Below, piece by piece: positions 2,295 through 17,611 of a stretch of 64,000 bases of DNA. The DNA is from Pyrinomonadaceae bacterium (GTDB lineage Bacteria > Acidobacteriota > Blastocatellia > Pyrinomonadales > Pyrinomonadaceae), in contig JAMQPI010000675.1 in the NCBI GenBank assembly GCA_023717565.1, forward strand, positions 658 through 64,657. Reading direction: 5' to 3'. The notes beneath the pieces are model-generated. The model was not told the origin of the DNA, did not search any database, and was given only the letters and a program-made list of their open reading frames with translations. Position 1 is the stretch's first letter. Every line of letters starts with the position of its first letter. The position numbers and the translations under genes are program-made.

Positions 2295-5200
2295 TCAGGT
2301 CGCCGAAAGACTTTCAACATCGGAGTCACGCCAAGTCAGCAGCACAGATTCTTCAGCATCACCATGACTTCTATAAGGACTGGACGTCATCGCCTCTTCT
2401 TCGTAGAGTCGTTGAGCAACTCTAAGGCATGGCGCTAGCTTTTCAGCCAGTACTTTTGCATATGGATCTACTGTTACGGCACCGTGAAAGCCGGGCACTT
2501 CGTGGATCTCAAGTGAGCCCCGCGCCATTCCGTGCCAGCCAAGACTATTGTCACGTACCACACCAGGTGGCTGACTTGCCGCCCGGAACAGGGTTAGCCT
2601 GCCGCCGTAGGGTTTCGGTTTGTACGATCTCAAAGCCCGGTCAATAGCTTTGTGATTGCGCTGTACGTCTTTCGGTAGTTGGCCGCCGGTTGCTGAGTTG
2701 AACGCGATTGCTATCTCGTTCTTTTTCCACGCAAGCTTGCGCACGAGCTTCTTCTGAAGCTTTCTAGTTTTCGCAACCAGGTAGCTAAGCTTCTCGCGGG
2801 ATGTGAGCAAATCCAAAGTTCGGTGTAGAGACCGAACCCTTTGGATACACCGAGCGAACCATCTCGTGAGTGATGTGGAACCTGGCATCAATTTGGGATA
2901 GCCCGGGCCATAGGTATCGAATAAGACAAGCAAGGCAACTACCTGCCCTTGATTCTCGAGTTGTCGCGCCATCTCAAAGGCGACAAGACCACCGAAGGAA
3001 GATCCCCCAAGATGGTAAGGCCCTTCCGGTTGGAATGCGCGAATCTCATTTAGATAGTACTCAGCCATCTCTTCGACACTGTCGTGAGTGGTCTGGTTTC
3101 GGTCCACGCCTCGAGCTTGTAAACCGTAGAGTGGTTGATCCAAGCCAAGATGTTTCGCTAGATCGCGGTAGAAAAGAACATCTCCGCCAGCCGCATGCAT
3201 GCAGTAGAAGGGCGGACGAGAACCCAAGGGTTGGATAGCCACGAGTGCGGACCACGCCTTCTCTCCGGGAGCATCGCGGAGACGACTAGCCAACTGTCTT
3301 ATAGTGGAAGCGCTGAGAAGAGTAACTAACGGAAGATGTCGCCCAAAACCCCTTTCAATTTCCGAAAAGAGCCTGACAGCCTGGAATGAATCACCTCCGA
3401 GTTCGAAATAGTTGTCATCGACACCTATCGGAGAAACTCCGAGCACGCCTTCCCAGATCGTCTTCAACTGCGCTTCAACTCTGTCCTCCGGCATAACCAT
3501 AGGGCCTGCCGCTTGGCGTAAGAGAGACTTCTCTGCCAGAACAGCGTTAGCAATTTGATCAACTGTGCTTAGTTCCGCAGGAACGCGCGCGAGGAACGAG
3601 GAGATGGTCGAAGCATTCGCAGCCTGTGTGCTCTCATTTCTTTCCAGATTATCCTCAGTAAGACGTGCCTTAATTTGGGTTGAACCGTCTAACCTGATGG
3701 TTACCGCCACCGCTGCCCGAACGCGGAACAGAGTTCCGTTTTCAACGGTCTGTACTTCTTCCGCCTCAATCTGACTAATGAATTCGTATGCGGGCCGATT
3801 CTTCGCAGTCGGCAGATAATTAATTTCAACGTATTCAAGTCCGCGTTCCAGAGCGATCACGCCGAGATGGGCGATCATTCTGTGCTCGACTCCCCGACCC
3901 AAGGCTCGACAACTTAAGAGAACCGTATCGACCGCAAGAGCATTCTCCTTCGCCTGGAAGATCATAGCTCCGACCAGTCCGTAGTCCCCGAAGCGATCGT
4001 TCACGTTAACAACATGACATTCGACCAATCCGGTTTCACAAAACTGTTCTATTTCGGAATCGGTTCGGCGTACCGTCGTGAAGTTGAACTGGTTCGTCCG
4101 TTGAGTAAGTTGCGAAACACGTGGCACCTGAGCGGGAAGCAACGGAGCGATGACAATTTCCAACCCCAAACCAGCTAAGAAATCCTGAAGAGTATCCGAG
4201 TGTGCACGGATCTGCTCTCGCTCAACATTGACCTTATAAAGATTGGTCCGATCCTGATCTTCCTTAGTAAGCCGAGATTGGTCGAAAGCCCAAACATGAC
4301 CGAGAAACGAAACAATCGCATCCGGCTCCTGCGGCAGTTGAAGGGTCAGAACCTCGGGGCAATTCGCCTGCACCTCATAGCAGACTGCTGGGTCGTCGTC
4401 AATAAAGATGAAACTGTCCAGCCCCAGATTCAGCTCAGACGCTAGTGAGCGCAAATTCTCAGATTTGGGTCTCCAATTTATTCTCCATGACACGATGTGG
4501 TCGCGTCTCATAGGCATTTCCGGGCGACGATCGAATACTTCGAAGACGTCCTCCTCGTTGTTCTTGCTACATAGACAGATCAGCATCCCTGCCTTAGATT
4601 GGTTCACCATGAACTCCTGAAGGGCGAGCCGTGACGGATCAATTTCCACTCCCATCGCGCCAACTTCTCCGCATATGCCTTTCCAGAGCGTTTGATCGCA
4701 ATCCAGCGCTATCACTTTGTGTGAAACGTTGGACAAACGATAGACTCTTCGAGCGATCATCGAAGACAGCGCAACGAAGAAGGACTGCGTGTATGGAATG
4801 TGACCCAGCCTGCTTCCTTCAAGGTCATCGTAATCTGCCACGAGGTATGTAGTAAGGAGCTCATCAGGCGTAACTAAGTGCACCGATTTTACGTCTGCAA
4901 GTTCGCTGCTAATCCGCTGCTCCAGCTCTTCTAGACAATCCCGCAACTCAGGTTCTTTTAGGGCAGCGCTGGAAGGCGGACAAATAACAAGCAAGTAAGG
5001 CACTGCGGAAACCTGTGCGGCTGTTCTCAGGGCCGAAATAAACTCACCAACACCCCTCCTGACCTTCTCACAGACGTCCGAGGGAAATTCTATCTTGCTG
5101 CTCTCATTGATATCGAATTTTCCCCAGTCTTCCAGCCTCACGAGGATCACGTTAATTCCGGCAAGATTGGAGCGGCAAACACTCGTCGGGTCCAGTAGCT

Positions 5201-5375
5201 GTTGAAACACCTGATTGTAGGGCGCAAACTCGACCGCCGAGGCATTACGCATCGCTTTCAACAAAAAGCAAAGCGGGTCATTGACTGGCTCGGCAGTAAA
5301 GGTCGCCGTGATTACAATTCTTTGCATCTGCACGTTGCTCACCACTTGCGGGAGGAAATCGGGCACCATCCGCAA
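2295..5375 (-). CDS. FkbH-like HAD phosphatase/acyltransferase + GNAT-like subdomain + carrier protein (PCP/ACP) + thioesterase fusion
   Basis: FkbH-type N-terminus (VITATFTAEP). HAD motifs ALDCDQTLW, CLCSKNNEED, FIFIDDDP. GNAT-like segment NQFNFTT...LLSCRALGRGVE. Phosphopantetheine site FELGGDSFQAVRL. Thioesterase GxSxG LGGSSFGG. Start uncertain (TTG 5375 or ATG 5327). Confidence 0.8.
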   Translation of the reverse strand: MRMVPDFLPQVVSNVQMQRIVITATFTAEPVNDPLCFLLKAMRNASAVEFAPYNQVFQQLLDPTSVCRSNLAGINVILVRLEDWGKFDINESSKIEFPSDVCEKVRRGVGEFISALRTAAQVSAVPYLLVICPPSSAALKEPELRDCLEELEQRISSELADVKSVHLVTPDELLTTYLVADYDDLEGSRLGHIPYTQSFFVALSSMIARRVYRLSNVSHKVIALDCDQTLWKGICGEVGAMGVEIDPSRLALQEFMVNQSKAGMLICLCSKNNEEDVFEVFDRRPEMPMRRDHIVSWRINWRPKSENLRSLASELNLGLDSFIFIDDDPAVCYEVQANCPEVLTLQLPQEPDAIVSFLGHVWAFDQSRLTKEDQDRTNLYKVNVEREQIRAHSDTLQDFLAGLGLEIVIAPLLPAQVPRVSQLTQRTNQFNFTTVRRTDSEIEQFCETGLVECHVVNVNDRFGDYGLVGAMIFQAKENALAVDTVLLSCRALGRGVEHRMIAHLGVIALERGLEYVEINYLPTAKNRPAYEFISQIEAEEVQTVENGTLFRVRAAVAVTIRLDGSTQIKARLTEDNLERNESTQAANASTISSFLARVPAELSTVDQIANAVLAEKSLLRQAAGPMVMPEDRVEAQLKTIWEGVLGVSPIGVDDNYFELGGDSFQAVRLFSEIERGFGRHLPLVTLLSASTIRQLASRLRDAPGEKAWSALVAIQPLGSRPPFYCMHAAGGDVLFYRDLAKHLGLDQPLYGLQARGVDRNQTTHDSVEEMAEYYLNEIRAFQPEGPYHLGGSSFGGLVAFEMARQLENQGQVVALLVLFDTYGPGYPKLMPGSTSLTRWFARCIQRVRSLHRTLDLLTSREKLSYLVAKTRKLQKKLVRKLAWKKNEIAIAFNSATGGQLPKDVQRNHKAIDRALRSYKPKPYGGRLTLFRAASQPPGVVRDNSLGWHGMARGSLEIHEVPGFHGAVTVDPYAKVLAEKLAPCLRVAQRLYEEEAMTSSPYRSHGDAEESVLLTWRDSDVESLSAT

Positions 5376-5471
5376 GTCGACTGAATTTGAAACTGTTTAA
5401 AGCCGATCAAGCTTGGGAATCGGAGCGGGAATTAGCTGTGCGCTTCTGGGTTGAGCGGAACCGGATCTAGG

Positions 5472-7451
5472 TTAGTCGCCACCGGCGGCAACATGAGAAC
5501 GTTCTATGAACGACTGCGGAATCGGTGCAAATTCTTCGCTCGGAATCTCCAATTGAGCCTCAGGCAATAGATCGTTAATTGCCTTGCGCAACTCGCGGTC
5601 CCAACCCTTCTGAGCCAAGATAGATAAACGCTCTAAAGCATGCCGAACTTTCTCTTCCGGGTACGCGGCAATCCTGCCAATGAAGATTTTTGGATGCCAT
5701 GTCTTCAAGACTACCTCATCGGTTGTTTGCAACTCCTCATAGAGTTTCTCGCCGGGACGCACACCGGTGAACACAATGTTGATGTCTTCAAAAGGTCGGA
5801 GTCCAGACAGTGCAATAGTCTCCTTAGCCAAATCCAGGATGCGCACAGGCTCACCCATGTCGAGGATGAATATCTCGCCGCCTCGACCTAAAGCTCCGGC
5901 CTGTAGAACGAGTTGGGAAGCCTCGGGAATAGTCATAAAGTAACGCACCATTTCGGGATGCGTTACTGTCACCGGCCCGCCACTGCGAATCTGATCCTGA
6001 AAGATTGGAATCACAGAACCAGCTGAACCAATAACGTTGCCGAAACGCACCGCCAGAAAACGCGTCTCCGACCGGTGATCTAAGTCCTGTATTACTAACT
6101 CTGCTACTCGTTTTGAAGCGCCCATGACCGAACTCGGGCGCACGGCTTTGTCCGTTGATATCAGTACGAACGCTTCAACGCCGAACTCAGAGGCCATCTC
6201 ACCGAGCAGGCTCGTGGCCAGTACATTGTTCTTAACTGCTTCGGAAGGATTCGTTTCCATCATAGGCACGTGCTTATGTGCCGCCGCATGCAGGATCACC
6301 TGAGGAGCATAGGTTTGGAAGATAGTATGCATCCGCGGCTTGTCACCTATATCGGCCACCAGGGCAATCACCTGAACCTGCGAGTCTTGGTTTCGCATTT
6401 CATGCTCAATTGCGAAAAGACCAAACTCAGCGCGTTCAACCAACAGCAGACAACTTGGTTGGAAGCGTGCCACCTGTCTAACCAGTTCGGACCCGATCGA
6501 ACCACCAGCGCCCGTGATCATGACGATCTTGCCGGCCAGGAAATTCTTCATGCTCTCTTGATCGAGTTGAACCTGTTCGCGGCCCAACAGATCTTCGATT
6601 TGCACGTCGCGAATCCGGCTCACTTTCAAATTGCCCTGCAACAGTTCGTAGATTCCTGGAACGGTGCGCACACGAACTTTGGCTCGTTCACAGATGTCGA
6701 GGATACGGCGGAAGTCTCGCCGAGAGGCCTCAGCAAAAGAGATCACTACGTGATCGATATTCAGCTCAGACACCAGTCGCGGAATATCTTCAGCCGTACC
6801 CATCACTTTGACGCCTTGTATAACGGAGCCCTGCTTTGCCGGGTCATCGTCAATGAATCCCTTCACCTCCATATCCACGTCTCCGCGGAGTCTGATTTCC
6901 CGGGCAATCATTACGCCAGCGCGCCCGGCTCCAATAAGGAGCACCGGCTTTCTTACTAAGCTACCAAGGGACTGACCCTTTCCGTTCTGCCGCTTTGAGC
7001 CTCGCTCGTATACCGCACGACGCAACACCCGCAGACCCAATACTCCACCGAAGGCTATCACCGTATCCATGACGATAATTGACAGCGGTACTCGGGCAGG
7101 TTGCAACTGTTCGGGCAGCCAGGTGCGAAGCGCGATCATTGGTAGTGCTGACCAGAGCGCTGCAGTTAAGAATGCTTTCACCTCCGCCATTCCAACGTAG
7201 CGCCAAACGAAGGCGTATATGCCGGCAAACCAAAGCAGCATTAACTGAAGCAGTAACACGAATGGGAGTTGGTAGAGCATGTGCTGGGTCTCCCGCTCCG
7301 AGATCACAAAATCAAACCGCAGCAGATATGCCAGCATGAACGCTAGTACTAATACGACAGTGTCGAGCGTGAATTGTGCTTGACGGGTAAGCAGTTTTGC
7401 TCGCCATGATCGCGATGAATTGGATCGATTGCGGGGCGTATCGATGACCAT
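5472..7451 (-). CDS. Membrane-anchored NDP-HexNAc 4,6-dehydratase (CapD/WbpM/PglF family)
   Basis: N-terminal TM helices. Rossmann motif VMITGAGGSIGSEL. HAAAHKHVPMME and STDKAVRPSSVMGASKRVAE (Met in place of the catalytic Tyr, as in this family). Confidence 0.9.
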   Translation of the reverse strand: MVIDTPRNRSNSSRSWRAKLLTRQAQFTLDTVVLVLAFMLAYLLRFDFVISERETQHMLYQLPFVLLLQLMLLWFAGIYAFVWRYVGMAEVKAFLTAALWSALPMIALRTWLPEQLQPARVPLSIIVMDTVIAFGGVLGLRVLRRAVYERGSKRQNGKGQSLGSLVRKPVLLIGAGRAGVMIAREIRLRGDVDMEVKGFIDDDPAKQGSVIQGVKVMGTAEDIPRLVSELNIDHVVISFAEASRRDFRRILDICERAKVRVRTVPGIYELLQGNLKVSRIRDVQIEDLLGREQVQLDQESMKNFLAGKIVMITGAGGSIGSELVRQVARFQPSCLLLVERAEFGLFAIEHEMRNQDSQVQVIALVADIGDKPRMHTIFQTYAPQVILHAAAHKHVPMMETNPSEAVKNNVLATSLLGEMASEFGVEAFVLISTDKAVRPSSVMGASKRVAELVIQDLDHRSETRFLAVRFGNVIGSAGSVIPIFQDQIRSGGPVTVTHPEMVRYFMTIPEASQLVLQAGALGRGGEIFILDMGEPVRILDLAKETIALSGLRPFEDINIVFTGVRPGEKLYEELQTTDEVVLKTWHPKIFIGRIAAYPEEKVRHALERLSILAQKGWDRELRKAINDLLPEAQLEIPSEEFAPIPQSFIERSHVAAGGD

Positions 7452-7743
7452 AAGTTGATAGCACTGGCCGTCAGGCTCATTTGCCCTCAGACACCAGTGC
7501 GTCCTCCTGGGAGTAAATTAGAAGTCTGGGTTGTAGTGGGATGCTCCGGATTAACCGTTGGAAAACGAGACGGCGATTCATTCGAGCGGGCGATCAGACA
7601 AAAGCATGACTTCCGCACCGGTTGAGATAACTCAAGCTATTGTGAGGATTCTTGTCTACCTAAGAATTGTGAGTAACAAATCGGCTGAGGGTTGCCACAC
7701 TCGACCTGCAACCTTGGGCCCTTCGGACACGAATGTCGGCAAT

Positions 7744-9081
7744 TCATGCAGTTCCCCCGTCCCGTGTCGTCGAGTCACCTAGATCCCGTCCCCGCGCCCG
7801 CTTTTGAAGTTCCGGAAGGCCGAACTTTCTGATTAACCTGAAGGGCCGGAGGAAATAGTAGAGAAAAGGGAGTGCGGAAGGCACCTGCAACATGGCGTGA
7901 TCGCGCTCATTGGGAACCACCGCAAGGCGCAGATAGCGGCGAAGATAATGCAGGCGCAACCGCACCCGGTCTGATACGCGCTCGCGCATGCGCAAATGAA
8001 TGTCCTGCCAGTAGGAGATTCCCTTGTGGGTTTCATTGTTTATGAAGAGAGATTCTTGCAGTCGCGTAGCCAGTGATTCCGTGGTTGGCTCAACCTGAAT
8101 TGTGCGCCATACCTCTGGCGACAACTCCAAACCCAACAGGTCTCTGGCCATTATCAACCCGAGGGCGAGTGTTCGTCGGCTGCCAAGGTTGCTCGCCTCC
8201 TCGACGATCGCTGGCCAGTCCATCGCAGGATGCGCACGTATCAACTCAACCACATCACAAATCCACAAGAGTCGCTCCCAGCCATGCCTGGAGCCATGCA
8301 TGCAGAGATACAGCAACAATTCCTCTGGCCCCAGCGTTCGCACGACCGAACCAGCTATGGAGACACTTTCGAGGCGCTTCCACATGGAGTTCTGTTCCAA
8401 GGGAAAATCAAAATGCTTACCGGTAAAACGCCAGTGAAGCTCTACCCGCACCCGACCATTAGCGCTGTCAAAGATCAAATCCTTATTGCGAGGCGAAAAG
8501 CGCAGTTCGCTCAGGGATGGACCAGGAGCGCTTATCAGTCGGTAGCCCTGGCCAGTCAATAGACCCTGGGTCCGCAACACATCCTGTGGTCGAACGAGAA
8601 TGTCCAGGTCACCAAAATCTCGGAGGCCCAGGTTGCCGTACGCCAGTGCAGCGAGAACGGGACCTTTAAATGGAAGTGCGTGAATGCCGCTTGCCTCGAA
8701 CAGGCGAAGAAGCTTGATGAGTTCTGCGGTGCGATACAGATTGTAATGAGCGTTAGTACTCGTGTAAGCACGCAGCACCTTCAAAACTTCCGCAGGTACC
8801 AGCGTCGGACAGACTTCATTCAGGTTTTGGCAGAGGAGCGGCGTCACCCGATGCCGCTCCGCTCGTTCAATGACGTAACTCCAGTCAATGCTGCCGCGCA
8901 GAAGAGTTCGAATGCGCTCCGCAGTGGCCTCGTCAATGACCTTGCGAGCGCAGGCGAGAAGGAGCTGCACTTCAGCCGGGTTATTTTCTCGGCCGGTGAG
9001 TGCCGCTGCTGCTGGTTCAACTACAGGCATTTCTTCGCCGCGACGGTAGGCAGAGTCGTCTATCTTAAGCTGCGTTGACAT
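7744..9081 (-). CDS. Nucleotidyltransferase-fold protein (PF14907-like), lasso-peptide tailoring candidate
   Basis: Motif ALPFKGPVLAALAYGNLGLRDFGDLDILV. 17-nt overlap with the upstream ABC exporter gene. Last gene of the lasso module. Confidence 0.75.
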   Translation of the reverse strand: MSTQLKIDDSAYRRGEEMPVVEPAAAALTGRENNPAEVQLLLACARKVIDEATAERIRTLLRGSIDWSYVIERAERHRVTPLLCQNLNEVCPTLVPAEVLKVLRAYTSTNAHYNLYRTAELIKLLRLFEASGIHALPFKGPVLAALAYGNLGLRDFGDLDILVRPQDVLRTQGLLTGQGYRLISAPGPSLSELRFSPRNKDLIFDSANGRVRVELHWRFTGKHFDFPLEQNSMWKRLESVSIAGSVVRTLGPEELLLYLCMHGSRHGWERLLWICDVVELIRAHPAMDWPAIVEEASNLGSRRTLALGLIMARDLLGLELSPEVWRTIQVEPTTESLATRLQESLFINNETHKGISYWQDIHLRMRERVSDRVRLRLHYLRRYLRLAVVPNERDHAMLQVPSALPFLYYFLRPFRLIRKFGLPELQKRARGRDLGDSTTRDGGTA

Positions 9082-11032
9082 CTCTTCTATCTTGACCTTC
9101 GACGTGCTGTAACCTGCGGTTACCGAATTGCGGAAGCGCAGTCAATTCCAGGACATCATCGGTTGAGTCAGATCCGGCTTGCATCTGGGTCAACCAGGAC
9201 TGCGCATAGAGTCCGCCTTGCTCCAGCAACTCTCGATGGCTGCCCGACTCGATAATCTTGCCGGCTTCCATTACGTGAATGATGTCGGCACGCATCGCTA
9301 TGCTGAAACGATGGGTGATCACAACTGCAGTGTGTCCCTGGGCTAACTCACGGAAGCGAGCGAACCAGTCGGCCTCGGTCCAGGAGTCCATCATGCTTGT
9401 AGGCTCATCAAGTAGAATGATTGGTGACTTTCGCAAATACGCTCGGGCGGTGGCAATCCGATGCCACTCACCGCCACTGAGCTCGACACCGTTCGCAAAC
9501 GTCTTACCCAACAACGTATCGTAGCCGTTCGGTAATCTAGTAATGAGTTCGTGCGCTCCGGCACTTCGTGCGGCAGATTCAATCGCTTCTTCACCCGGCT
9601 CCGACGCGAGATCACCCATGGCAATACTTTGACCTGCGGTTGCCTGGTAGTTGAACGGAAACTGGAATAACACCGTCGTCATCCGGCGCAATTCATCAAG
9701 TGAAAGGTCGCGCACGTCGATTCCATCAAGTTCGACCCGCCCGTGCTCAGGGTCATAAAATCGGCAGAGAATTTTCAACAGTGTGGTCTTACCGGCTCCG
9801 TTGGCGCCAACGATGGCGACTAGCTTGCCGGCAGGAATAGACAGGTTGAAGTTCTGCAAAGCTGGTTGCTGACTGCCTGGGTAACGAAATGTGATGTTCT
9901 GGAACTCAATCCCCTTCATCAGCGCTACCGGCGCGGGAACCGGCCGGGTTGGTTCGGTGAGCTGCGGTCGCATGTCTAAGAATGCAAACAGGTTTTCAAG
10001 AAACAAGCTACTACTGTAAATCTGCCCCAGATTTCCCAGGAGCGAACGAAGTAGCCCCTGACCTCTACTAAATGCCTGATAAAAGAGCGCCAGATCTCCG
10101 AGGGTCGCCGCACCACGCAACGCCTTCAAGATAACCAAAGCCAAAGCGATTCCCGAAACCAGCTGTGCGAATGCACTAGCTGCCAACTTTGCCTGACCTT
10201 GCTTTTTGATCTGGGTCATGCGCTCGTTGCGGAGCAACTTACGAATCTTCTGATAACCACCCTGGAAATGGGGAGCTAAGCCAAAAAGGCGCAGTTCGGG
10301 CGCCGTCGCGGTGTGTGTCAACAGCAGATCGTAATATTGGGCCCAACGCCGCTCGCTGGCTCGGTTGTACCACCAGGCATGATGACGACGATCAAGTACG
10401 ACAACGACAACGAACGCCGGAAGCGTGCTCAGAAGCAGGACGAGTGGCAGCCACAGTCCGAAAGGTACCAAAACCAAGGCCATCGCTAGCAACGTGATAC
10501 TGTTCTGCAATAGACTGCCAACGCTTTCAAGCAAGACCAGCGGCCGTGAGCTGGCGTCATTCCGAACGCGTTCCAGACGGTCCTGAAACTCCGGTGATTC
10601 GTGGACGCTCAAGTCCATGGTTGCGGACTGCTGATGGATTAGGCCCCTAATATGGTCCTGAACTAGTTCCGATTGCGCGGTGCGGACCAGTTCGCTCATG
10701 CTCTGCAGAAGTTCACCTATTAGCATCACGCCGACAGTCAGAGCAATCAAGACGATAGCTGGCCGCACACTCACCCAATCGCCTCCGGATTTGGCGGCCA
10801 CTACCAGGCTATCTACCAGGAGCTTGACCAAATAAACTGAGGCTAATGGGTGTACCCCTTGGAGGACTAACAAGGTGGCCCAAGCAACAGTCCAGCGGGG
10901 CGCGGCGGTCCGGATCAATCCAAACGTTCGCGGCCAGTAGGCAGCAAGCGCAGTAACCTGATTCCACGAAGGCAACAATAAATTGCGAGTATTCATCGAT
11001 GTGAACATTTCCACCGAAAGCCGTGGGATCAC
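9065..11032 (-). CDS. ABC exporter, fused TMD-NBD (McjD-like lasso-peptide export/immunity candidate)
   Basis: N-terminal multi-TM domain. Walker A GANGAGKTT, signature LSGGEWHR, Walker B ILLDEPTS. The GTG start overlaps the stop of precursor A2 (GTGA). Confidence 0.9.
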   Translation of the reverse strand: MIPRLSVEMFTSMNTRNLLLPSWNQVTALAAYWPRTFGLIRTAAPRWTVAWATLLVLQGVHPLASVYLVKLLVDSLVVAAKSGGDWVSVRPAIVLIALTVGVMLIGELLQSMSELVRTAQSELVQDHIRGLIHQQSATMDLSVHESPEFQDRLERVRNDASSRPLVLLESVGSLLQNSITLLAMALVLVPFGLWLPLVLLLSTLPAFVVVVVLDRRHHAWWYNRASERRWAQYYDLLLTHTATAPELRLFGLAPHFQGGYQKIRKLLRNERMTQIKKQGQAKLAASAFAQLVSGIALALVILKALRGAATLGDLALFYQAFSRGQGLLRSLLGNLGQIYSSSLFLENLFAFLDMRPQLTEPTRPVPAPVALMKGIEFQNITFRYPGSQQPALQNFNLSIPAGKLVAIVGANGAGKTTLLKILCRFYDPEHGRVELDGIDVRDLSLDELRRMTTVLFQFPFNYQATAGQSIAMGDLASEPGEEAIESAARSAGAHELITRLPNGYDTLLGKTFANGVELSGGEWHRIATARAYLRKSPIILLDEPTSMMDSWTEADWFARFRELAQGHTAVVITHRFSIAMRADIIHVMEAGKIIESGSHRELLEQGGLYAQSWLTQMQAGSDSTDDVLELTALPQFGNRRLQHVEGQDRRDVNAA

Positions 11033-11205
11033 GAAAAGGCGTTTTGCTTGGGCTGCTTTGTTCCTCTCGGATTACTCGAATTGGTAAATGCGGCGTCCAA
11101 GTTTTCCCCTAAGTCGGTGCCCAACGTAATTGTCTCCACATCACCGTGCACAATGAGTTGGGGAGCTTGATAAGGCTTCTTTTCGGCTGGTGTATTTTCT
11201 TCCAT
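11029..11205 (-). CDS. Lasso-peptide precursor A2 (58 aa)
   Basis: MEENTPAEKKPYQAPQLIVHGDVETITLGTDLGENLDAAFTNSSNPRGTKQPKQNAFS. AAGGAAGG lies 4 nt upstream of the ATG at 11205. Thr at -2, Gly1 and Asp9 in the predicted core, C-terminal Ser. Paralog of the peptide at 12194..12355. Confidence 0.75.
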   Translation of the reverse strand: MEENTPAEKKPYQAPQLIVHGDVETITLGTDLGENLDAAFTNSSNPRGTKQPKQNAFS

Positions 11206-11255
11206 GATCCCTTCCTTTGCTTTTCTGTCGATCAATCCAAGTTCCTCATTTGAGT

Positions 11256-12170
11256 CTAGACATGTTGAAAGTGTTCCTCTACCAGCTGGGCAACGCCTGG
11301 CAACGAAGGCAATGAACTGGGCCGCTCAAGGCGGTAGACATCGATGTGCCTGATAAGTTTGGTGCATTGGCGTAGATGAGAGGAGGCTTCCACGCCATGA
11401 AGCAGTTCCCTTCCGAATCGCGACATGTAGGAGTTTGCGATAAGCGTTAGCAGACCAGCCTGCGGTTCGAGAGGTATAAGAGTCGACACGGGACCGCAGC
11501 CCAGCGCATAGATACCTTTAAGCGGCACCGGACGCTGAGCGAATCGTTCCGTTACCGGCCGGCCTCGCTTTTCGTAGCCCGCGGCAAGTTCGGGCAGAGT
11601 TTCGTAATCGTCACCCAACGAAGAGAGAACAGCTTCAGGATAAAGCTTGAATTGCGGAAATCCAGGTACGACGATGGGCAGTCCCTGGTCATCAAACTTT
11701 ATCGCCACCACGTCGTCGGAGATCAAAAGATGACCTCGGCCGTACAGCGTTGCCGCCATGGTTGACTTGCCCCAGCCTTTGTTCCCGAGGAAGATGAGCG
11801 CGCCGCCGTCTATCGCAACCGAACTTGCGTGTAAGACCAGGTAACCCCGTTGATGCAGTAGTACCGCCAGGATCGTCCCCAACAACGGCAACCTCAACAA
11901 GCGCTCCTCGACCTCAGGGATCGGATCAACGACGATCTCAGTTCCCCTCCTGACCCGGAACTTCCCGAGATGTGCCCAGAAGAAATGGGCTTCGCGCGAG
12001 GTGATCTCAAAGCAGAAGTCTTCACCGGCATCCTTTTGAGGTGGGTGCCAATCAAGACAACCAAATCGGATCGAGACGTCTGTAGCCACTTCTGCCGAAG
12101 CTTGCAGCTCCGGCAGAAGTAGCTCAGAGTTAATGCCTAGGCTATAGGCATTGTATGAGTAGATTGACAC
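11256..12170 (-). CDS. HPr-kinase-fold P-loop protein (lasso-peptide Ser kinase candidate)
   Basis: P-loop FLGNKGWGKST. GTG start preceded by GAGGAAG. Sits between the two precursor genes. Confidence 0.8.
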   Translation of the reverse strand: MSIYSYNAYSLGINSELLLPELQASAEVATDVSIRFGCLDWHPPQKDAGEDFCFEITSREAHFFWAHLGKFRVRRGTEIVVDPIPEVEERLLRLPLLGTILAVLLHQRGYLVLHASSVAIDGGALIFLGNKGWGKSTMAATLYGRGHLLISDDVVAIKFDDQGLPIVVPGFPQFKLYPEAVLSSLGDDYETLPELAAGYEKRGRPVTERFAQRPVPLKGIYALGCGPVSTLIPLEPQAGLLTLIANSYMSRFGRELLHGVEASSHLRQCTKLIRHIDVYRLERPSSLPSLPGVAQLVEEHFQHV

Positions 12171-12193
12171 GACCGTTTTCTTCCTCTAGGAAC

Positions 12194-12355
12194 CTACGAC
12201 AGCGTGACGTCCCTAAAAGGAGTGTTGATTGGAAACGACGCATCCAAGTGGTCGCCGTTGCTGAAGCCCTGCGTGATCGCCTCAATGTCACCAAGCACGG
12301 TAACAGTGGGTGATGTATAGGGCTTCTTGTCGGCGCTGTTTGTTGATTGTTGCAT
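12194..12355 (-). CDS. Lasso-peptide precursor A1 (53 aa; absent from the ORF track)
   Basis: Hand translation of the reverse strand gives MQQSTNSADKKPYTSPTVTVLGDIEAITQGFSNGDHLDASFPINTPFRDVTLS, ending in a TAG stop. AAGGAG lies 11 nt upstream of the ATG. It lies in the 251-nt gap between the cyclase and kinase genes. Confidence 0.75.
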   Translation of the reverse strand: MQQSTNSADKKPYTSPTVTVLGDIEAITQGFSNGDHLDASFPINTPFRDVTLS

Positions 12356-12421
12356 TTGAGTGTTGTCTCCTTAACTAGTTGAAGTGGGGAATTTGGAGCA
12401 TTTTGGGCTCCCGTCATTGGA

Positions 12422-14422
12422 TTACATTGGTACCACCTCCTCTCTATAATTAACGTTCGGTGCTGGATCTTTGAAGGAGTGTCGGTGTTGAAGCCACAAA
12501 GCAAGTGACGCAGATTTCCAGATCGCGAATAGGTCTGTTGAATCAGTCTCAGATTCCTGCTCGAGAAATCGCCCATAAGCGCGACGCAACGCGGAAATGT
12601 CAATGTACCCCTCAATAACGCCAGGATTGCGGATGATGATCTCGTCCAGTTGTTCCCGTTCAAACGCTCGAAGGCCATAGACAAGACTCGGCGCAAAATC
12701 CGTCTTAGCAGTTCTCCATTGAACCTGCGGCGGCAGAATTCCGGTCATCGCACGCCGCATGACAACTCGCGTCCACCCGTTATTCAACTTCTGTTGCGAA
12801 GGCAGAGCGAGACAGAACTCAACTAAACGTTTGTCCCAAAATGGGTACCTCTTCTCAATCGAGAATGCGCCTGCGGCACTATCGTGTAATTCAAGGGCGA
12901 AGGCCTGCATTGGATGACCGAGCATCCGGTAGTGGGCTTCACGCTCTGTTCTTGCTGTCTTTGAAGTTGTTTGTCGCCATGCCTGGTAACGCTCTGACAT
13001 ATTGATCTGGGAGGCAAACGCAGGGTTCAGCAATTCTCGCCAACCAGTTCGTTGCGCGGGCTCTGCCGAATCACTAGTCACTCGCCTTCGAGCTCCGCGC
13101 CAGACCCTTCGTGCGAAGCGAAGAGCATGATGATTATTGATTGTTGGGTTGATTCCATATTTCCAGCCAAAAGCCCACAAGGCTTCCCATGAGGAAACGC
13201 CTTGTTGTTTCGCCAGCGGTTTGAGTTCTGCCCTTAGCCTGAGCCAACGTCCCGCTCGGGCCACTTCATGGAGGTACCGTTCACCGTGAGAGACTGTTGT
13301 GTCGCCATCATGTCCATCGAGCAAAACGCGCACGCCTTGCGCTCCAACTGCCTGGTACACGGACCAGATCATTGAGAAGTTGGGCCCGAAAGTGGGTTGG
13401 TCCTGGTGCCAGTGAAGCTGCGCAAGGCATCCGAAAGGTCCTTGTTCGTTGCCAGTGATAAAGTGGGGGTCCACTCCATTCTCCTTGAGCACTGGATTTA
13501 TGAATTCACGTTCGTCGCATTCAGGCACGGCATCAAAGATGGTCGAAAATGTTTTGAGCTGAGAAGCGGGTGCGCCTGTGAGGAGGTTTCTCGCCACGCA
13601 AGTGATTGATGACGAGTCGAGCCCTCCGCTCAGCATCGAGCCCACAGAGTCTGATGTGCGCAAGCGGCAGCGTACTGACTCGGTAAACACTTCACGAAAC
13701 GCCTCGGCGTACTCGTCATTCGACTTCAACTCTACCTTGCGCGTGGGATCGAGCGCCCAGTAACGCTTCGTAATGACTTTACCGTCGCGGACTCTCATGC
13801 TGTGAGCCGGAGGCAGGCGAACGATACCCTGGTAGAATGTGCTTTCGGGGTCAACGAACACATCGGCCAGATGATCTCCCAACCGAACTTCGTTCAATTC
13901 ATAGGGAACCTCATCGACAGTCCAAAGCGCCTTGATTTCAGTCGCAAAGACAAAAGTTCTCTGCGGCGCGAAATAATAATAGAAGGGCTTGACGCCAAAG
14001 TGATCGCGGGCGCAGAAGAGTGTTCTCGCGGGAGCGTCCCAAATGGCGAATGCGAAATCACCCAGCAACCTTTCCGCACAGGCTTCGCCCCACAGGCGAT
14101 AGGCGGCAAGAATCAATTGGCTATCGGTTTCTGCGCCGCAGCTGAGGCCGGCTAATCGCAACTCCCCAATCAATTCCTGGCGATTATCAAGGCGAGCGTC
14201 TGCGGTAATCACATAGTCCCCGTTAATGTCACGAAAGGGTAGACGCTCACTCAGGGACTCCGGCGTGGTATGAAGCATCCGGTGACCCAGACCAACCGAT
14301 CCGGCACACCATGCTGCATAGCCATCTGGTCCACGGTGGGCCAGTACCGTTGCCATTCGCTCTAGCCCAGCGCGCGAAACGGGACGACCATCAAGATAAT
14401 GCCAGCCAAAGATCGCGCTCAT
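12422..14422 (-). CDS. Lasso cyclase (Asn-synthetase-fold, McjC-like)
   Basis: Asn-synthetase architecture with PP-loop SGGLDSSS. Ser replaces the Cys2 nucleophile (MSAIFGW). 4-nt overlap with the B2 gene. Confidence 0.85.
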   Translation of the reverse strand: MSAIFGWHYLDGRPVSRAGLERMATVLAHRGPDGYAAWCAGSVGLGHRMLHTTPESLSERLPFRDINGDYVITADARLDNRQELIGELRLAGLSCGAETDSQLILAAYRLWGEACAERLLGDFAFAIWDAPARTLFCARDHFGVKPFYYYFAPQRTFVFATEIKALWTVDEVPYELNEVRLGDHLADVFVDPESTFYQGIVRLPPAHSMRVRDGKVITKRYWALDPTRKVELKSNDEYAEAFREVFTESVRCRLRTSDSVGSMLSGGLDSSSITCVARNLLTGAPASQLKTFSTIFDAVPECDEREFINPVLKENGVDPHFITGNEQGPFGCLAQLHWHQDQPTFGPNFSMIWSVYQAVGAQGVRVLLDGHDGDTTVSHGERYLHEVARAGRWLRLRAELKPLAKQQGVSSWEALWAFGWKYGINPTINNHHALRFARRVWRGARRRVTSDSAEPAQRTGWRELLNPAFASQINMSERYQAWRQTTSKTARTEREAHYRMLGHPMQAFALELHDSAAGAFSIEKRYPFWDKRLVEFCLALPSQQKLNNGWTRVVMRRAMTGILPPQVQWRTAKTDFAPSLVYGLRAFEREQLDEIIIRNPGVIEGYIDISALRRAYGRFLEQESETDSTDLFAIWKSASLALWLQHRHSFKDPAPNVNYREEVVPM

Positions 14423-14856
14423 GTTCCCTCGACCGCATGCAAAACGGTGAACCGCTGGAGGTCAGCGTGTGTGCCACCGATGATTACTTTGCCCTTGCTC
14501 TCAACCCAGGCATGAGCTTCAAGCTCCCCGGATTTGTCTCTGGCGACGCCAATCCGCAGGCACGCAGGAAATCCAGCGTCTTCCAACAGCTTTACCGTAA
14601 CCAGTGACTGCGCGAGACACGTCGCTGCGGGTACAAAACGACTCATTACTTTGACGCAACGTGCAATCCTCTCGGCTTGCACCGGCACTGACTTGGTCGC
14701 GACAATATTGGCCGACCTAATACTCAGTAGCGTTCTCAACCGTTGAAACGGAAGAATCCATAGACCGATTCTGACTATCCAGAGCAGCGTGACGGCCTTA
14801 ATCAAAATCCTCCGCTCAGCCGCTGGCGAACTTAAGAATCTTAGCGCTGATCTCAT
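14419..14856 (-). CDS. Lasso leader peptidase B2 (transglutaminase-like Cys protease)
   Basis: 145 aa. Cys motif AATCLAQSL and His motif EAHAWVE. 4-nt overlaps on both sides. Confidence 0.85.
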   Translation of the reverse strand: MRSALRFLSSPAAERRILIKAVTLLWIVRIGLWILPFQRLRTLLSIRSANIVATKSVPVQAERIARCVKVMSRFVPAATCLAQSLVTVKLLEDAGFPACLRIGVARDKSGELEAHAWVESKGKVIIGGTHADLQRFTVLHAVEGT

Positions 14857-15203
14857 CGTCTCACCTCGATCAGATTGCGCTCAGCCATGTCCTTGAACAG
14901 AACCTTTAGGTCTGCTAAACAGCGCTCAGGCTCGACTGCGTACTCATCCAGCACAGCGTTGGTGATTTCATCAATTGTCTTGGGCTCTTGAATCAACCCC
15001 CAGATGTACGTACCGACCGCGTCCAGGCCGTAATAGACTCCGGACTTGAGATCGAGGATGACTGCGCCCTCGGAGAGATCACAACACAGCAACTCTTTAT
15101 TCGCAGCGATGATCGAGTTGTCGGTGATAGTCATAGCGTCGTCAAGAATACGTGCTACGAGCGGAGCAGATAAGCTGGCTTCAAGCATAATGTCGTCCTT
15201 CAA
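14853..15203 (-). CDS. PqqD-like RiPP recognition element (lasso B1)
   Basis: 116 aa. PqqD-type pattern AVILDLKSGVYYGLDAVGTYIWGLI...DEITNAVLDEY. First gene of the lasso module. Confidence 0.85.
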   Translation of the reverse strand: MKDDIMLEASLSAPLVARILDDAMTITDNSIIAANKELLCCDLSEGAVILDLKSGVYYGLDAVGTYIWGLIQEPKTIDEITNAVLDEYAVEPERCLADLKVLFKDMAERNLIEVRR

Positions 15204-15302
15204 TGTGAGAATCGGAACTGATCTGGTAGTGCTGGAATTCCGGTCATCCCTGGTCGACTCGCAAGAGTGAGCGAACGCTTGTATTGCCAGCGTAAGGATT
15301 CG

Positions 15303-16337
15303 CTAACGAGAAGTCCGCGGGGTTTGGAAGGTTCTTTCTCGCGCCGTAGTCCAGAAATAGTAGCCAAGGAAAGCGGCCCCGGCCGCTGTCAATACCCCCC
15401 ACCGTGCGCTCGCGTCTGAGGTGCGGACAGCGACAACGGTCAGCGTCGCAAATACCGCTCCCGCACCAGTAACTTTGAGAACAACCCGGTCATGCCGTAA
15501 TCCTGCTTGCACCAACCGCTGATACAAGTGTGAGCGATGCGCTTGCCACACGCGTTGGCCCTCGACCAGGCGACGCAGGATCGTGAACACGCCGTCCGAC
15601 AGGAAGAACCAGAGACACATGGCAACGATCAACACCGCGTCACCTCTTGACGCGGGCGCCGACTGGAAGGGCACAGCAGCTAGCGCGAACCCAAGCGTCC
15701 CAGATCCCACGTCGCCCATGAATACCTTTGCCGGATGCCAGTTGTGCGGGAGAAAGCCAGCGCACGCGCCGGCCACTGCCAGGCCAACCGCAGCAACTTC
15801 CCCCTGCCCCCACAGAGCTATTCCTAATCCGGCAACCACTCCTTGAAGGCCGGCAAACCCATCTATGCCATCTAAAAAGTTATAAAGATTCAGCACGGCC
15901 ACTATCCACAGCAGGGAGAAAGGTACCGCGAAAAATGACAACTCAAAGTTCAGGGGGTCAGGGAGTGGCAGGCGCTCAACGGCACCTCCACCCCAGACGA
16001 TTAGTCCTGCGGCAGCGAACTGCGTTGCAAGGCGAAGCAACACAGGGAGCCCGCCTAAATGATCGTCAATGAACCCCACTGCGGCGATTAGCGCAATGCC
16101 AAGGAAGAGTTCCGCGCCCGGGATTTTAGATCCCACGAGTGCAGCCGCGCCCAAGCCTGCCAGCAGCCCAGCAACTATCCCCACACCTCCGCCTCGCGGT
16201 GTAGGCACAGCATGGGAAGACCTGGCATTCGGAAGGTCGAGCAAACCTCGGTTCCTGAGTACTGGAATCGCAACCCGAGTCACGCACCAAGCCACAACGA
16301 ATGCTACTGCAAAGGTTAATATGGCCTGCACCGGCAT
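15303..16337 (-). CDS. Polyprenyl-phosphate HexNAc-1-phosphate transferase (WbpL/WecA/MraY family, initiating enzyme)
   Basis: Polytopic. Motifs GFIDDHLGG, NLYNFLDGIDG, FMGDVGS. TAATG stop/start overlap with the upstream GT gene. Confidence 0.9.
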   Translation of the reverse strand: MPVQAILTFAVAFVVAWCVTRVAIPVLRNRGLLDLPNARSSHAVPTPRGGGVGIVAGLLAGLGAAALVGSKIPGAELFLGIALIAAVGFIDDHLGGLPVLLRLATQFAAAGLIVWGGGAVERLPLPDPLNFELSFFAVPFSLLWIVAVLNLYNFLDGIDGFAGLQGVVAGLGIALWGQGEVAAVGLAVAGACAGFLPHNWHPAKVFMGDVGSGTLGFALAAVPFQSAPASRGDAVLIVAMCLWFFLSDGVFTILRRLVEGQRVWQAHRSHLYQRLVQAGLRHDRVVLKVTGAGAVFATLTVVAVRTSDASARWGVLTAAGAAFLGYYFWTTARERTFQTPRTSR

Positions 16338-17611
16338 TAAGCTTGCCCTCCATCATTACTCGGCAGTTTTTTAAGTAACATTGGATTTGGAACTTTGAGA
16401 TCAGTTGCTTCACGGTAGGCAGCCGCTAGCAATATTGTCCGCATTTTCTCTGCGAGAATTGACCGGTCAAACTGCTCCCGGGCTACTCGTTGGGCGTTCG
16501 CTGCAAGTCTGGTTCGAAATCCATTTCCATGGGCCAACTGCAGTACGGCACTGGCCATCGCTTCCGGATCGTTGGGTGGCACATTCATTCCACACTGCTC
16601 GCGTTCGAGCAGATCTTTAATCCAACCTTTCGTCGCCTGCACCACTGGAGTGCCAGCTGCGAAAGCATCAAACACTTTGTTTGGGGATGCAGTAGCCAGA
16701 AAAGGAACGTCCTTAACGGTGAACAGCGCGCAACATGACGCCTTAAGCCACCTCATGACATCTTGCTTTGGCAGTGGTCCGAGGAAATGGACGTTGCGCA
16801 ATTCCATAGTGCGCAATTTCTCTTCCAGTTCCTTACGCTCTTTGCCGTCGCCAATCAGAACGTATTCAAGGTCGTCAATGCCCTGTTGCTGCGTCACCGC
16901 AGCGACTTCGAGAATTTGGCCGCAGTCATCAATTAAGCCAAGCGTTCCGGTATATAGCGCAAGTTGTTTACCCTGCGCCCACTCCGGCAGTTCAATGCCG
17001 TCTTTGATACTCTCGACGAGCTCATTATCTGAGGCATTTGGGATTACTTCGATGTTATCAAAACCATATGTCTTGCGAATCCACTCAGCCATGCCTTCGG
17101 ACAGCGCAACGACTGTCGAGGCTAGCCGATAACAATGGCGCTCAAACCGCCTTGCTAACGAAATAACTAGCTTGTTTCGGATTATGCCTAGCTGGATTGC
17201 TCCTTCTGGCCAGAGGTCTCGCACCTCAAAGACAAAAGGCCGTCTTCTTATATAACGGGAGAGCAGACCAGGTAGACCAACTGTCAGTGGTCCTGACGAG
17301 CAAACTACAACGTCAGCCGGAAGAACGAGCGCATACCAGGAAGCCACCAGTGCGTAGGCTGCAAAGCTGAGCAAGCGAAAGACGATGCCATGCTTGTTTG
17401 AGAGGCGGATATTAATCATCCGCACGTCAATGCCATCGATATCAAAACGTGAGATGGGCTTATCAGGAGTGATTCCCGACTTGTCGTACACACTGGTGAC
17501 AATCGTGACTGAATCACCTGCCTTTACCCACCGCCGGGCAAACTCATAAGCCCGCGTACTGTAGGAACCCTGGGGCACAGTAAAGTACTGATAAAAGTAT
17601 AAAACTCGCAT
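16337..17611 (-). CDS. GT-B glycosyltransferase, family 4 (WbuB-like)
   Basis: N-terminus MRVLYFYQYFTVPQGSYSTRAYEFARRW is typical of WbuB-type enzymes, followed by a C-terminal GT-B nucleotide-sugar domain. Confidence 0.85.
   Translation of the reverse strand: MRVLYFYQYFTVPQGSYSTRAYEFARRWVKAGDSVTIVTSVYDKSGITPDKPISRFDIDGIDVRMINIRLSNKHGIVFRLLSFAAYALVASWYALVLPADVVVCSSGPLTVGLPGLLSRYIRRRPFVFEVRDLWPEGAIQLGIIRNKLVISLARRFERHCYRLASTVVALSEGMAEWIRKTYGFDNIEVIPNASDNELVESIKDGIELPEWAQGKQLALYTGTLGLIDDCGQILEVAAVTQQQGIDDLEYVLIGDGKERKELEEKLRTMELRNVHFLGPLPKQDVMRWLKASCCALFTVKDVPFLATASPNKVFDAFAAGTPVVQATKGWIKDLLEREQCGMNVPPNDPEAMASAVLQLAHGNGFRTRLAANAQRVAREQFDRSILAEKMRTILLAAAYREATDLKVPNPMLLKKLPSNDGGQA

Follow-up and report, generated by a model that had tools for sequence, protein, structure and literature searches.

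Precursor genes and cluster architecture

Do the two short paralogous open reading frames (ORFs) that flank a kinase gene in this DNA give rise to two different lasso peptides, and could a single set of enzymes mature both of them? The stretch that we analyzed, hereafter the window, is 64 kb long and derives from a Pyrinomonadaceae (Acidobacteriota) metagenome-assembled genome (MAG). An earlier note on it had described the two ORFs as precursors with a common leader, a core with Gly1 and Asp9 and a C-terminal Ser. We found that they lie within a complete split-B lasso operon, B1-B2-C-A1-K-A2-D-N, at positions 7744-15203 of the minus strand (Table 1).

Table 1. Coordinates of the lasso peptide operon and of its sugar-dehydratase neighbor in the window
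Feature	Positions	Strand	Remarks
B1, PqqD-like leader-recognition protein (RRE)	14853..15203	-	116 aa from TTG; Pfam PqqD 65.6 bits (cut-off 23.4)
B2, transglutaminase-like leader peptidase	14419..14856	-	145 aa; NF033537 lasso_biosyn_B2 96.2 bits (cut-off 33)
C, lasso cyclase, asparagine-synthase-like	12422..14422	-	666 aa; NF033535 (lasso peptide isopeptide bond-forming cyclase) 839 bits (cut-off 525)
Shine-Dalgarno AAGGAG of A1	12367..12372	-	11 nt upstream of ATG; direct reading of the sequence
A1 precursor	12194..12355	-	53 aa; leader 12355-12269 (29 aa), predicted core 12268-12197, stop codon 12196-12194
K, HPr-kinase-like peptide kinase	11256..12170	-	304 aa, GTG start; Hpr_kinase_C P-loop region E 1.7e-7
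Shine-Dalgarno AAGGAAGG of A2	11210..11217	-	4 nt upstream of ATG; direct reading of the sequence
A2 precursor	11029..11205	-	58 aa; leader 11205-11122 (28 aa), predicted core 11121-11032, stop codon 11031-11029
D, ABC exporter, permease and ATPase fused	9065..11032	-	655 aa; ABC_tran 101.6 bits, ABC_membrane
N, nucleotidyltransferase, PF14907 (NTP_transf_5)	7744..9081	-	445 aa; PF14907 225 bits
PglF/WbpM-like membrane-anchored sugar-nucleotide 4,6-dehydratase (Polysacc_synt_2)	5472..7451	-	PF02719 381.7 bits

Profile searches placed the PqqD, NF033537 and NF033535 genes within 3 kb and on the same strand as the precursors. Each gene of the cluster could be assigned, and both C and B2 exceed their curated cut-offs. 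B1 reaches 60.4 bits against NCBIfam lasso_PqqD_Bac, below the cut-off of 80, and its true start may be an ATG five codons downstream of the TTG. Cys80 and His115 of B2 are invariant among 50 homologues, the cyclase carries the PP-loop SGGLDS at residue 265 and the exporter D keeps its position in homologous clusters. The single enzyme set that had been claimed agrees with this inventory, in which the full split-B genes are accompanied by a kinase, an exporter and a nucleotidyltransferase, and C is the only lasso cyclase in the window. Two other asparagine synthases were considered as lasso cyclases and rejected as ordinary AsnB-type enzymes; the one that was scored reached 205 bits, where the cyclase model asks for 525.

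A1 (12355->12194) reads MQQSTNSADKKPYTSPTVTVLGDIEAITQGFSNGDHLDASFPINTPFRDVTLS and A2 (11205->11029) reads MEENTPAEKKPYQAPQLIVHGDVETITLGTDLGENLDAAFTNSSNPRGTKQPKQNAFS. They share 49% identity over the first 41 residues (BLASTP E 2e-12) and cannot be aligned beyond core position 12. NCBI lists each of them as a 'lasso RiPP family leader peptide-containing protein' (A1, MCM3874362.1, 53 aa; A2, MCM3874360.1, 68 aa from a TTG at 11235). The Shine-Dalgarno sites claimed for the two ORFs were recovered at the proposed distances. Both proteins exceed the curated cut-off of 19 bits of NCBIfam NF033521 lasso_leader_L3 (23.4 bits for A1 and 24.2 for A2) and stay below that of 33 bits of NF033528 lasso_cyano (25.2 and 31.1 bits, respectively); judged by these profile scores, they are related to the lasso_cyano subfamily and are not members of it by the curated rule. 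A six-frame motif scan of the entire 64 kb matched A1 and A2 alone.

Tyr, Pro, Gly and Thr occupy positions -17, -14, -8 and -2 of both leaders, and position -12 is Val in A1 and Leu in A2. This spacing is that of the YxxPxL...T(-2) motif of lasso precursors, with YxxPxL at -17 to -12 (PMC10368454), and supports the proposed cleavage after ITQ or ITL. The predicted cores are thus GFSNGDHLDASFPINTPFRDVTLS (24 aa) for A1 and GTDLGENLDAAFTNSSNPRGTKQPKQNAFS (30 aa) for A2. Both begin with Gly, and of their positions 7-9 only Asp9 is acidic, which supports the predicted ring between Gly1 and Asp9. In leader, core and gene neighborhood, A1 and A2 agree with lasso precursors of the class II type.

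Conservation of the two precursors

We compared A1 and A2 with 52 related metagenomic precursors, 9 of A1-type and 43 of A2-type. None of them (0/52) departs from Gly1, Asp9, Phe12 or the C-terminal Ser, and the final Ser is always preceded by Phe, Leu or Val. The order A1-type precursor(s)-kinase-A2-type precursor recurs in seven other contigs (L001, L002, L081, L083, L084, L087 and L088), so that conserved ORFs are indeed present at these positions in homologous clusters. Wherever dS is unsaturated, comparison with orthologues returned dN/dS values of 0.15-0.33 for A1 and of approximately 0.15 for A2, and purifying selection extends over the entire length of both, tails included. ORFs of 53 and 58 aa are short enough to raise the suspicion of chance open frames in intergenic DNA. 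The comparative data refute this explanation and leave it next to no probability: both ORFs exceed the cut-off of the lasso leader model, they match each other by BLASTP, they have 52 homologues, their dN/dS is low, and their positions on the two sides of the kinase are conserved.

The tails after position 12 had been described as unrelated to each other. This holds, and in addition each tail type is kept as a family of its own. Cores of the A2-type family are 28-37 aa long and combine an acidic ring, in which Asp or Glu fills as many as four of positions 2, 3, 6 and 7, with a Lys/Arg-rich tail and a Phe-Ser end; the papers that we searched gave no description of this family. A core of at least 30 residues with an extended C-terminal tail is also a feature of pandonodin, a very long-tailed lasso peptide from proteobacteria. 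Its sequence is unrelated to the A2-type cores, and no kinase or C-terminal Ser modification is known for it. Nostoc homologues (L008 and L010) carry A1-like cores (GLGLGLFTDKEFPISTPKDDVTFS), and no counterpart of the A2-type tail was found in the cyanobacterial loci examined.

Since a single enzyme set faces tails of very different charge and length, it is conceivable that only one ORF is a productive substrate, the other being a decaying paralogue or an unmatured leader-bearing decoy or regulator. The occurrence of one type without the other, with an A1-type precursor only in L020 and an A2-type precursor without A1-type in L086, goes in the same direction. We nevertheless consider this very unlikely, because selection acts on both ORFs over their whole length, both tail types are conserved, the pair is present on seven other contigs and each ORF has a Shine-Dalgarno site of its own. 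Moreover, L086 cuts both ways: it hosts orthologues of the window cyclase (71% identity) and kinase (67% identity) with the A2-type precursor only, which suggests that A2-type peptides are substrates in their own right. A1 and A2 therefore very likely encode true precursors, each of a lasso peptide of its own, served by one adjacent enzyme set.

Proposed maturation pathway

As judged from their sequences and from characterized relatives, A1 and A2 are probably functional precursor genes of the split-B operon, and would yield two peptides through the following pathway, each step of which we infer from homology and from those same relatives. The PqqD-like protein B1 would bind the common leader via Tyr-17, Pro-14 and Val/Leu-12. 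The HPr-kinase-like enzyme K would then phosphorylate the C-terminal Ser hydroxyl, perhaps repeatedly, while the precursor is still linear, and the Cys protease B2 would cleave after Thr(-2)-Gln/Leu(-1). The cyclase C would activate the side chain of Asp9 and couple it to the amine of Gly1, forming a 9-residue ring that traps the tail. The nucleotidyltransferase N may decorate the phosphate with a sugar or a similar group, and the ABC transporter D would export the products. Since the two precursors have in common the leader and the ring region G1xxxG5xxxD9-x-x-F12, one enzyme set could handle both. The predicted product of A1 is an acidic peptide of 24 residues ([M+H]+ 2589.24 as unmodified lasso), and that of A2 a peptide of 30 residues whose ring is acidic and whose tail is basic ([M+H]+ 3147.51); each phosphate would add 79.97.

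Threading of these products is not assured, because pseudomycoidin is not a threaded lasso without its tailoring enzymes (PMC6993621). The products may thus be cyclized head to side chain and remain unthreaded, that is branched-cyclic, unless a bulky modification of the C-terminal phosphate locks the tail. The authors of the pseudomycoidin study proposed a phospho-hexose as such a lock (PMC6993621), and both K and N are present in the cluster. However, bulky residues in the two tails, namely Phe12, Phe18 and Arg19 in A1 and Phe12, Arg19 and Lys22 in A2, could act as ordinary plugs, and we regard unthreaded products as rather unlikely compared with the threaded peptides of the pathway above.

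The kinase and its target residue

The kinase gene lies between A1 and A2, and the profile of its product matches the HPrK structures 1jb1 and 1ko7. Its catalytic motif is H114...G129-x2-G132-x-G134-K135-S136...D152-D153; seven of these eight residues never vary across 15 relatives, and the eighth, G129, shows a conservation of at least 90%. The offsets from His equal those of BsfK (H148-G163-G166-G168-K169-S170-D186-D187; PMC10368454). We rejected the assignment of K as a bona fide HprK: the catalytic core is in common, but only the P-loop region (approximately residues 105-165) matches, and the scores are below cut-off. K reaches 31.4 against Pfam PF07475 Hpr_kinase_C, where the gathering score is 33.3, and 30.2 against TIGR00679, where the cut-off is 240, far short of the cut-offs of HprK-related TIGRFAMs.

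PadeK, ThcoK, SyanK and PsmK act on linear lasso precursors, whose C-terminal Ser they phosphorylate (PMC9266682, PMC8498205, PMC6993621), and by analogy we infer the C-terminal Ser of A1 and A2 to be the target of K. BsfK instead phosphorylates Ser3 of the core and also accepts Thr (PMC10368454). Both ORFs could therefore be lasso precursors in which K modifies a ring-region residue, Ser3 in A1 and Thr2 in A2, with the C-terminal Ser kept, for example, for recognition by N or D or as a tail plug. In a wider set of precursor-like ORFs adjoining related kinases, only 28 out of 72 end in Ser, and the remaining 44 do not, which speaks for such a target. Positions 2 and 3 are, however, unconserved: position 3 of the A1-type peptides is S, E, Q, T or N, and positions 2 and 3 of the A2-type peptides are mostly D/D. 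The terminal Ser is instead present in 52/52, after Phe, Leu or Val, and is the residue used by four characterized kinases of the same type (PMC9266682, PMC6993621). A ring-region target is hence unlikely, and the C-terminal Ser remains our preferred site.

Candidate sugar-tailoring genes

PsmN of the pseudomycoidin cluster is needed for the addition of hexose to the phosphate of the C-terminal Ser (PMC6993621). By the same logic, N may be a modifier of phospho-Ser in our operon. In 44 cluster-linked homologues, some of them from Bacillota MAGs, its residues K139, G140, D158 and D160 do not vary, and D158-x-D160 forms the invariant DxD motif; a sequence-based search of the PDB for relatives of N returned none. 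The PglF-like dehydratase that adjoins the lasso cluster of the window has homologues beside the cluster at seven other loci (L001, L002, L019, L081, L083, L086 and L087), in differing outer contexts; we treat it as a possible member of the cluster.

These features leave room for a more speculative reading, to which we assign a low probability. The A2-type peptides may constitute a distinct lasso subclass, with a polyanionic 9-residue ring, a long tail rich in Lys/Arg and a Phe-Ser end that never varies, whose phospho-Ser would bear a derivative of a 6-deoxy-amino-sugar rather than a plain hexose, the sugar being supplied by the PglF-like 4,6-dehydratase. If so, there would be a functional link between the lasso pathway and sugar-nucleotide metabolism, and a pair of peptides of opposite chemistry, the acidic A1 and the zwitterionic A2, would be produced together.

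Comparison with known systems and significance

The cluster belongs to the paeninodin/pseudomycoidin type, which is already established, as are its leader logic and its kinase. As in the paeninodin type (Paenibacillus dendritiformis, PadeA/PadeK; also ThcoK and SyanK), it has split B1/B2, a cyclase, an ABC exporter and an HPr-kinase-like kinase with a His...Lys...Asp-Asp motif, PadeK being compared by its description. Paeninodin also has a Ser-ended precursor and a 9-residue ring closed on Asp9 (PMC9266682, PMC6993621), the same that we predict here. In contrast, our cluster comes from Acidobacteriota, follows the order B1-B2-C-A-K-A-D-N and has two divergent precursors flanking the kinase, and core residue 1 is Gly instead of the Ala of paeninodin and pseudomycoidin. 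The pseudomycoidin cluster (Bacillus pseudomycoides, psmCAKB1B2ND) has a kinase, as ours does, and its 'uncharacterised nucleotidyltransferase' PsmN, which bears a catalytic Asp-x-Asp, may correspond to our N, PsmN again being compared by description; its product ends, as here, in a Ser, which is (poly)phosphorylated and then hexose-bearing (PMC6993621). It differs in having N between B2 and D rather than after D, and ours adds a second precursor and the adjoining PglF-like dehydratase. The bsf cluster (Bradymonas sediminis, BsfA/BsfK/BsfN) has the gene set A, B1, B2, C, D, K and N in common with ours (PMC10368454), with identical YxxPxL leader motif and spacing of the kinase motif. BsfA, however, has Ile(-2), a Gly1-Asp8 ring and a phosphorylated Ser3, whereas A1 and A2 have Thr(-2), a predicted Gly1-Asp9 ring and a conserved C-terminal Ser. 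A likeness to the cyanobacterial type (NF033528/NF033535) is seen in the score of the cyclase (839 bits) and in the alignment of both leaders to NF033528.

The A2-type precursor family and the recurrent PglF-like neighbor are mildly new. In the literature searched, mostly without subscription journals, we found neither a description of a lasso peptide isolated from Acidobacteriota nor the core sequences of A1 and A2. In other respects this is routine genome mining, and both genes were already labeled by the automatic annotation of NCBI. The cluster nonetheless yields two concrete products with predicted masses from an abundant and rarely cultured soil lineage, and it offers a natural test of how far B1, B2, C and K tolerate very different tails. 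The A2-type family and the recurrent sugar-dehydratase neighbor of the cluster offer starting points in the search for new chemistry that tailors the C-terminal phosphate.

Two precursor genes within a complete lasso-peptide operon

The two minus-strand ORFs that the earlier note had described as paralogous lasso precursors, A1 and A2, translate here exactly as it had read them. Their first 41 residues are 49% identical (E 2e-12), in agreement with the common leader proposed for them, and their tails are indeed unrelated, with no alignable similarity between A1 and A2 beyond core position 12. Scanning all six frames of the window for the motif revealed no third precursor. NCBI labels both as 'lasso RiPP family leader peptide-containing protein' (MCM3874362.1 for A1 and MCM3874360.1 for A2). 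In the latter record the protein starts at TTG 11235 and is 68 aa long. We favour ATG 11205 as the start, because it is preceded by a Shine-Dalgarno sequence and agrees in length and N-terminus with the orthologues; the public start of A2 is probably 10 codons too long. The main RODEO heuristics were applied to the precursors by hand. Both A1 and A2 score above the curated cut-off of NF033521, a lasso leader model, and slightly below that of NF033528, the model for cyanobacterial precursors.

All genes around A1 and A2 lie on one strand and compose a complete lasso-peptide operon, comprising a leader-binding protein (B1), a peptidase (B2), a cyclase (C), a kinase (K), an exporter (D) and a nucleotidyltransferase (N). 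The first of two additional asparagine synthases in the window was rejected as a second cyclase, because it reaches 205 bits against the 525-bit cut-off for lasso cyclases and passes asn_synth_AEB. Both are ordinary AsnB or polysaccharide-amidotransferase types, which leaves a single cyclase in the window, as expected if one enzyme set serves both precursors. Rfam at gathering thresholds gave no match in the whole window, a tRNA/tmRNA scan found none, and a promoter and terminator consensus scan of positions 7000-16500 returned 5 and 8 sites, compared with 4.5 and 9.2 expected, that is, no signal.

Features of the window and dehydratase homologues on related contigs
Feature	Contig	Position	Strand	Description
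B1	window	14853-15203	minus	PqqD-like
B2	window	14419-14856	minus	NF033537, 96 bits vs cut-off 33; Cys80 and His115 invariant
C	window	12422-14422	minus	NF033535 lasso cyclase, 839 bits vs 525; PP-loop SGGLDS
A1	window	12194-12355	minus	precursor, 53 codons from ATG 12355; AAGGAG 11 nt upstream
K	window	11256-12170	minus	HPr-kinase-like
A2	window	11029-11205	minus	precursor, 58 codons from ATG 11205; AAGGAAGG 4 nt upstream
D	window	9065-11032	minus	ABC exporter
N	window	7744-9081	minus	PF14907 nucleotidyltransferase, 225 bits
Poly_export	window	62906-63979	minus	polysaccharide locus
Wzc-like protein	window	60412-62868	minus	polysaccharide locus
Asn synthase 2	window	51023-52759	minus	polysaccharide locus; glutamine-dependent; typed by Pfam domains, which are as in Asn synthase 1
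NeuB	window	48364-49455	minus	polysaccharide locus
Wzy	window	22328-23791	minus	polysaccharide locus
Asn synthase 1	window	19182-21074	minus	polysaccharide locus; glutamine-dependent; asn_synth_AEB 439 bits vs 267
Further genes	window		minus	polysaccharide locus: UDP-GlcNAc 2-epimerase, formyltransferase, sugar nucleotidyltransferase, DegT, two Wzt-type ABC ATPases, pyruvyl transferase, at least 7 glycosyltransferases
4,6-dehydratase	window	5472-7451	minus	PglF/WbpM-like, membrane, sugar-nucleotide; Polysacc_synt_2; directly adjoins lasso cluster
Dehydratase homologue	L001	11915-13837
Dehydratase homologue	L002	2162-4147
Dehydratase homologue	L019	12843-14804
Dehydratase homologue	L081	11249-12162		runs off locus end
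Dehydratase homologue	L083	9844-11874
Dehydratase homologue	L086	10634-12604
Dehydratase homologue	L087	9522-11534

Leader cleavage and ring closure

The cuts proposed after ITQ in A1 and ITL in A2 place Tyr at -17, Pro at -14, Val or Leu at -12, Gly at -8 and Thr at -2 in both leaders. In lasso precursors the YxxPxL motif spans exactly -17 to -12, and position -2 holds a residue for recognition (PMC10368454). The cores predicted from this cut are GFSNGDHLDASFPINTPFRDVTLS (24 aa) for A1 and GTDLGENLDAAFTNSSNPRGTKQPKQNAFS (30 aa) for A2. Known lasso rings close at positions 7-9 (PMC10368454), and in both peptides Asp9 is the sole acidic residue in this interval, which fits the Gly1-Asp9 ring suggested earlier. 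We rejected Asp6 in A1, and Asp3 or Glu6 in A2, as ring acceptors, since the ring would be smaller than the known 7-9 residues and these positions vary among relatives.

Conservation of precursors and gene order in relatives

Database searches of metagenomes and MAGs yielded a comparison set of 9 A1-type and 43 A2-type sequences. When these were aligned, as the earlier note had proposed, Gly1, Asp9, Phe12 and the final Ser were invariant (52 out of 52), and Gly5 was so in 51. The core of A1-type precursors has a constant length of 24 residues and a conserved tail, FP-x-(N/D)-TP-(F/R)-x-x-x-T-(L/V/F)-S. Most A2-type cores have 28-37 residues, with a ring rich in Asp and Glu, a tail with 3-8 Lys or Arg in most members and a Phe-Ser end in 42 of the 43. 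The two tails are mutually unrelated, yet each is conserved within its own type. Codon-level comparison with orthologues, restricted to pairs with unsaturated dS, returned dN/dS of 0.15-0.33 for A1 and approximately 0.15 for A2. These low values show that both window ORFs are under purifying selection at the protein level. One of the two A1-type copies on the related contig L087 (5508-5669) ends in TFGS rather than TFS. A family with the acidic ring, basic tail and Phe-Ser end of the A2 type was absent from the papers searched, mostly those outside subscription journals.

We placed the relatives of the kinase on 80 genome contigs, where B1-B2-C-A(n)-K-D-N is a frequent gene arrangement among cyanobacteria, Chloroflexota, Acidobacteriota and further phyla. 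One or more A1-type genes ahead of K, with an A2-type gene following it, are found on contigs L001, L002, L081, L083, L084, L087 and L088, so relatives do retain ORFs at these positions. Contig L086 has two cyclase/kinase pairs, and the pair orthologous to window C (71%) and K (67%) accompanies an A2-type precursor only. It follows that this lineage of enzymes accepts A2-type peptides as substrates and does not carry them as mere passengers.

The gene order of L086 (806-6947) is C-A-K-C-K-A2-D-N, the first precursor being of another type with a Cys-containing core. Its two cyclases share 44% identity. A single B1/B2 pair lies upstream, the only one that gene calling recovered in this locus. 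The cyclase of L087 (3477-5424) is called as two pieces of 450 and 174 aa, a split that points to a frameshift or to faulty assembly.

Phosphorylation site and proposed pathway

K, which is 100% identical to a protein encoded in an NCBI Pyrinomonadaceae MAG (Acidobacteriota), matches HPr kinases around the P-loop only and, judged by the curated cut-offs, is no genuine HprK. Its motif (His114, Gly129, Gly132, Gly134, Lys135, Ser136, Asp152, Asp153) has the same offsets from His as that of BsfK, H148-G163-G166-G168-K169-S170-D186-D187 (PMC10368454). In linear lasso precursors, the C-terminal Ser is the residue that PadeK, ThcoK, SyanK and PsmK (poly)phosphorylate (PMC9266682, PMC8498205, PMC6993621). 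BsfK instead phosphorylates Ser3 and not the C-terminus (PMC10368454), and K might likewise target Ser3 in the core, a residue present in A1; across the 52 precursors, however, core position 3 varies while the terminal Ser does not. BsfK is accelerated by BsfB1. Among 72 precursor-like ORFs adjoining related kinases in the 80 kinase-linked loci, only 28 end in Ser, and in many from cyanobacteria the last residue is Pro, Ala, Gly or Lys. These kinases thus probably do not always act on the C-terminus, and the C-terminal-Ser rule holds for this subclade rather than for the kinase family at large.

Addition of one or two hexoses to the C-terminal Ser phosphate depends on PsmN, an 'uncharacterised nucleotidyltransferase' whose catalytic residues form an Asp-x-Asp (PMC6993621). 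In N, Lys139-Gly140 and Asp158-x-Asp160 are invariant among 44 cluster-linked homologues; a PDB sequence search with N gave no match. From the shared kinase motif, the precedents of PadeK, ThcoK, SyanK, PsmK and PsmN, and the invariant residues of N, we infer, at every step, B1 -> K -> B2 -> C -> N -> D as the most likely pathway. B1 would bind the leader, K would phosphorylate the terminal Ser, B2 would cleave, C would close the Gly1-Asp9 ring, N would possibly decorate the phosphate and D would export the product. The calculated [M+H]+ values are 2589.237 for the A1 lasso, 2669.203 with one phosphate and 2831.256 with phosphate plus hexose; for A2 the corresponding values are 3147.509, 3227.475 and 3389.528. 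Since pseudomycoidin without its modifications is not threaded (PMC6993621), threading of the products is here only putative.

Genomic surroundings of the cluster

Almost the whole window (15303-63979 and 2295-7451) is taken up by a locus for polysaccharide biosynthesis, about 60 kb long and all on the minus strand. The lasso operon lies near its 3' end, between a GT4 initiating transferase and the PglF-like 4,6-dehydratase. In addition to the window, 7 contigs have such a dehydratase adjoining the lasso cluster. On L002 it occupies the other flank of the cluster, and on L087 AraC regulators, not polysaccharide genes, flank dehydratase and cluster. This adjacency hints at a functional link with N, for which the dehydratase may supply the sugar donor, but synteny inherited through shared ancestry of the genomes could account for it equally well. 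Adjoining the locus, a protein of approximately 1025 aa (2295-5375) bears FkbH-like, carrier-protein (PP-binding) and thioesterase domains and might acylate a sugar or the polysaccharide. L002 has a PP-binding/thioesterase protein of similar size in the equivalent place (13599-16673).

Relation to known lasso clusters

A full-text literature search for the A1 and A2 core strings and for 'cyanobacterial lasso' returned no papers, and we found no description of a lasso peptide isolated from Acidobacteriota in a search largely of literature outside subscription journals. The window cluster is a paeninodin/pseudomycoidin/bsf-type lasso cluster. This kind of cluster was already known, and the gene labels come from automatic annotation; the phylum, Acidobacteriota, is new for it, and the cluster has two divergent precursors.
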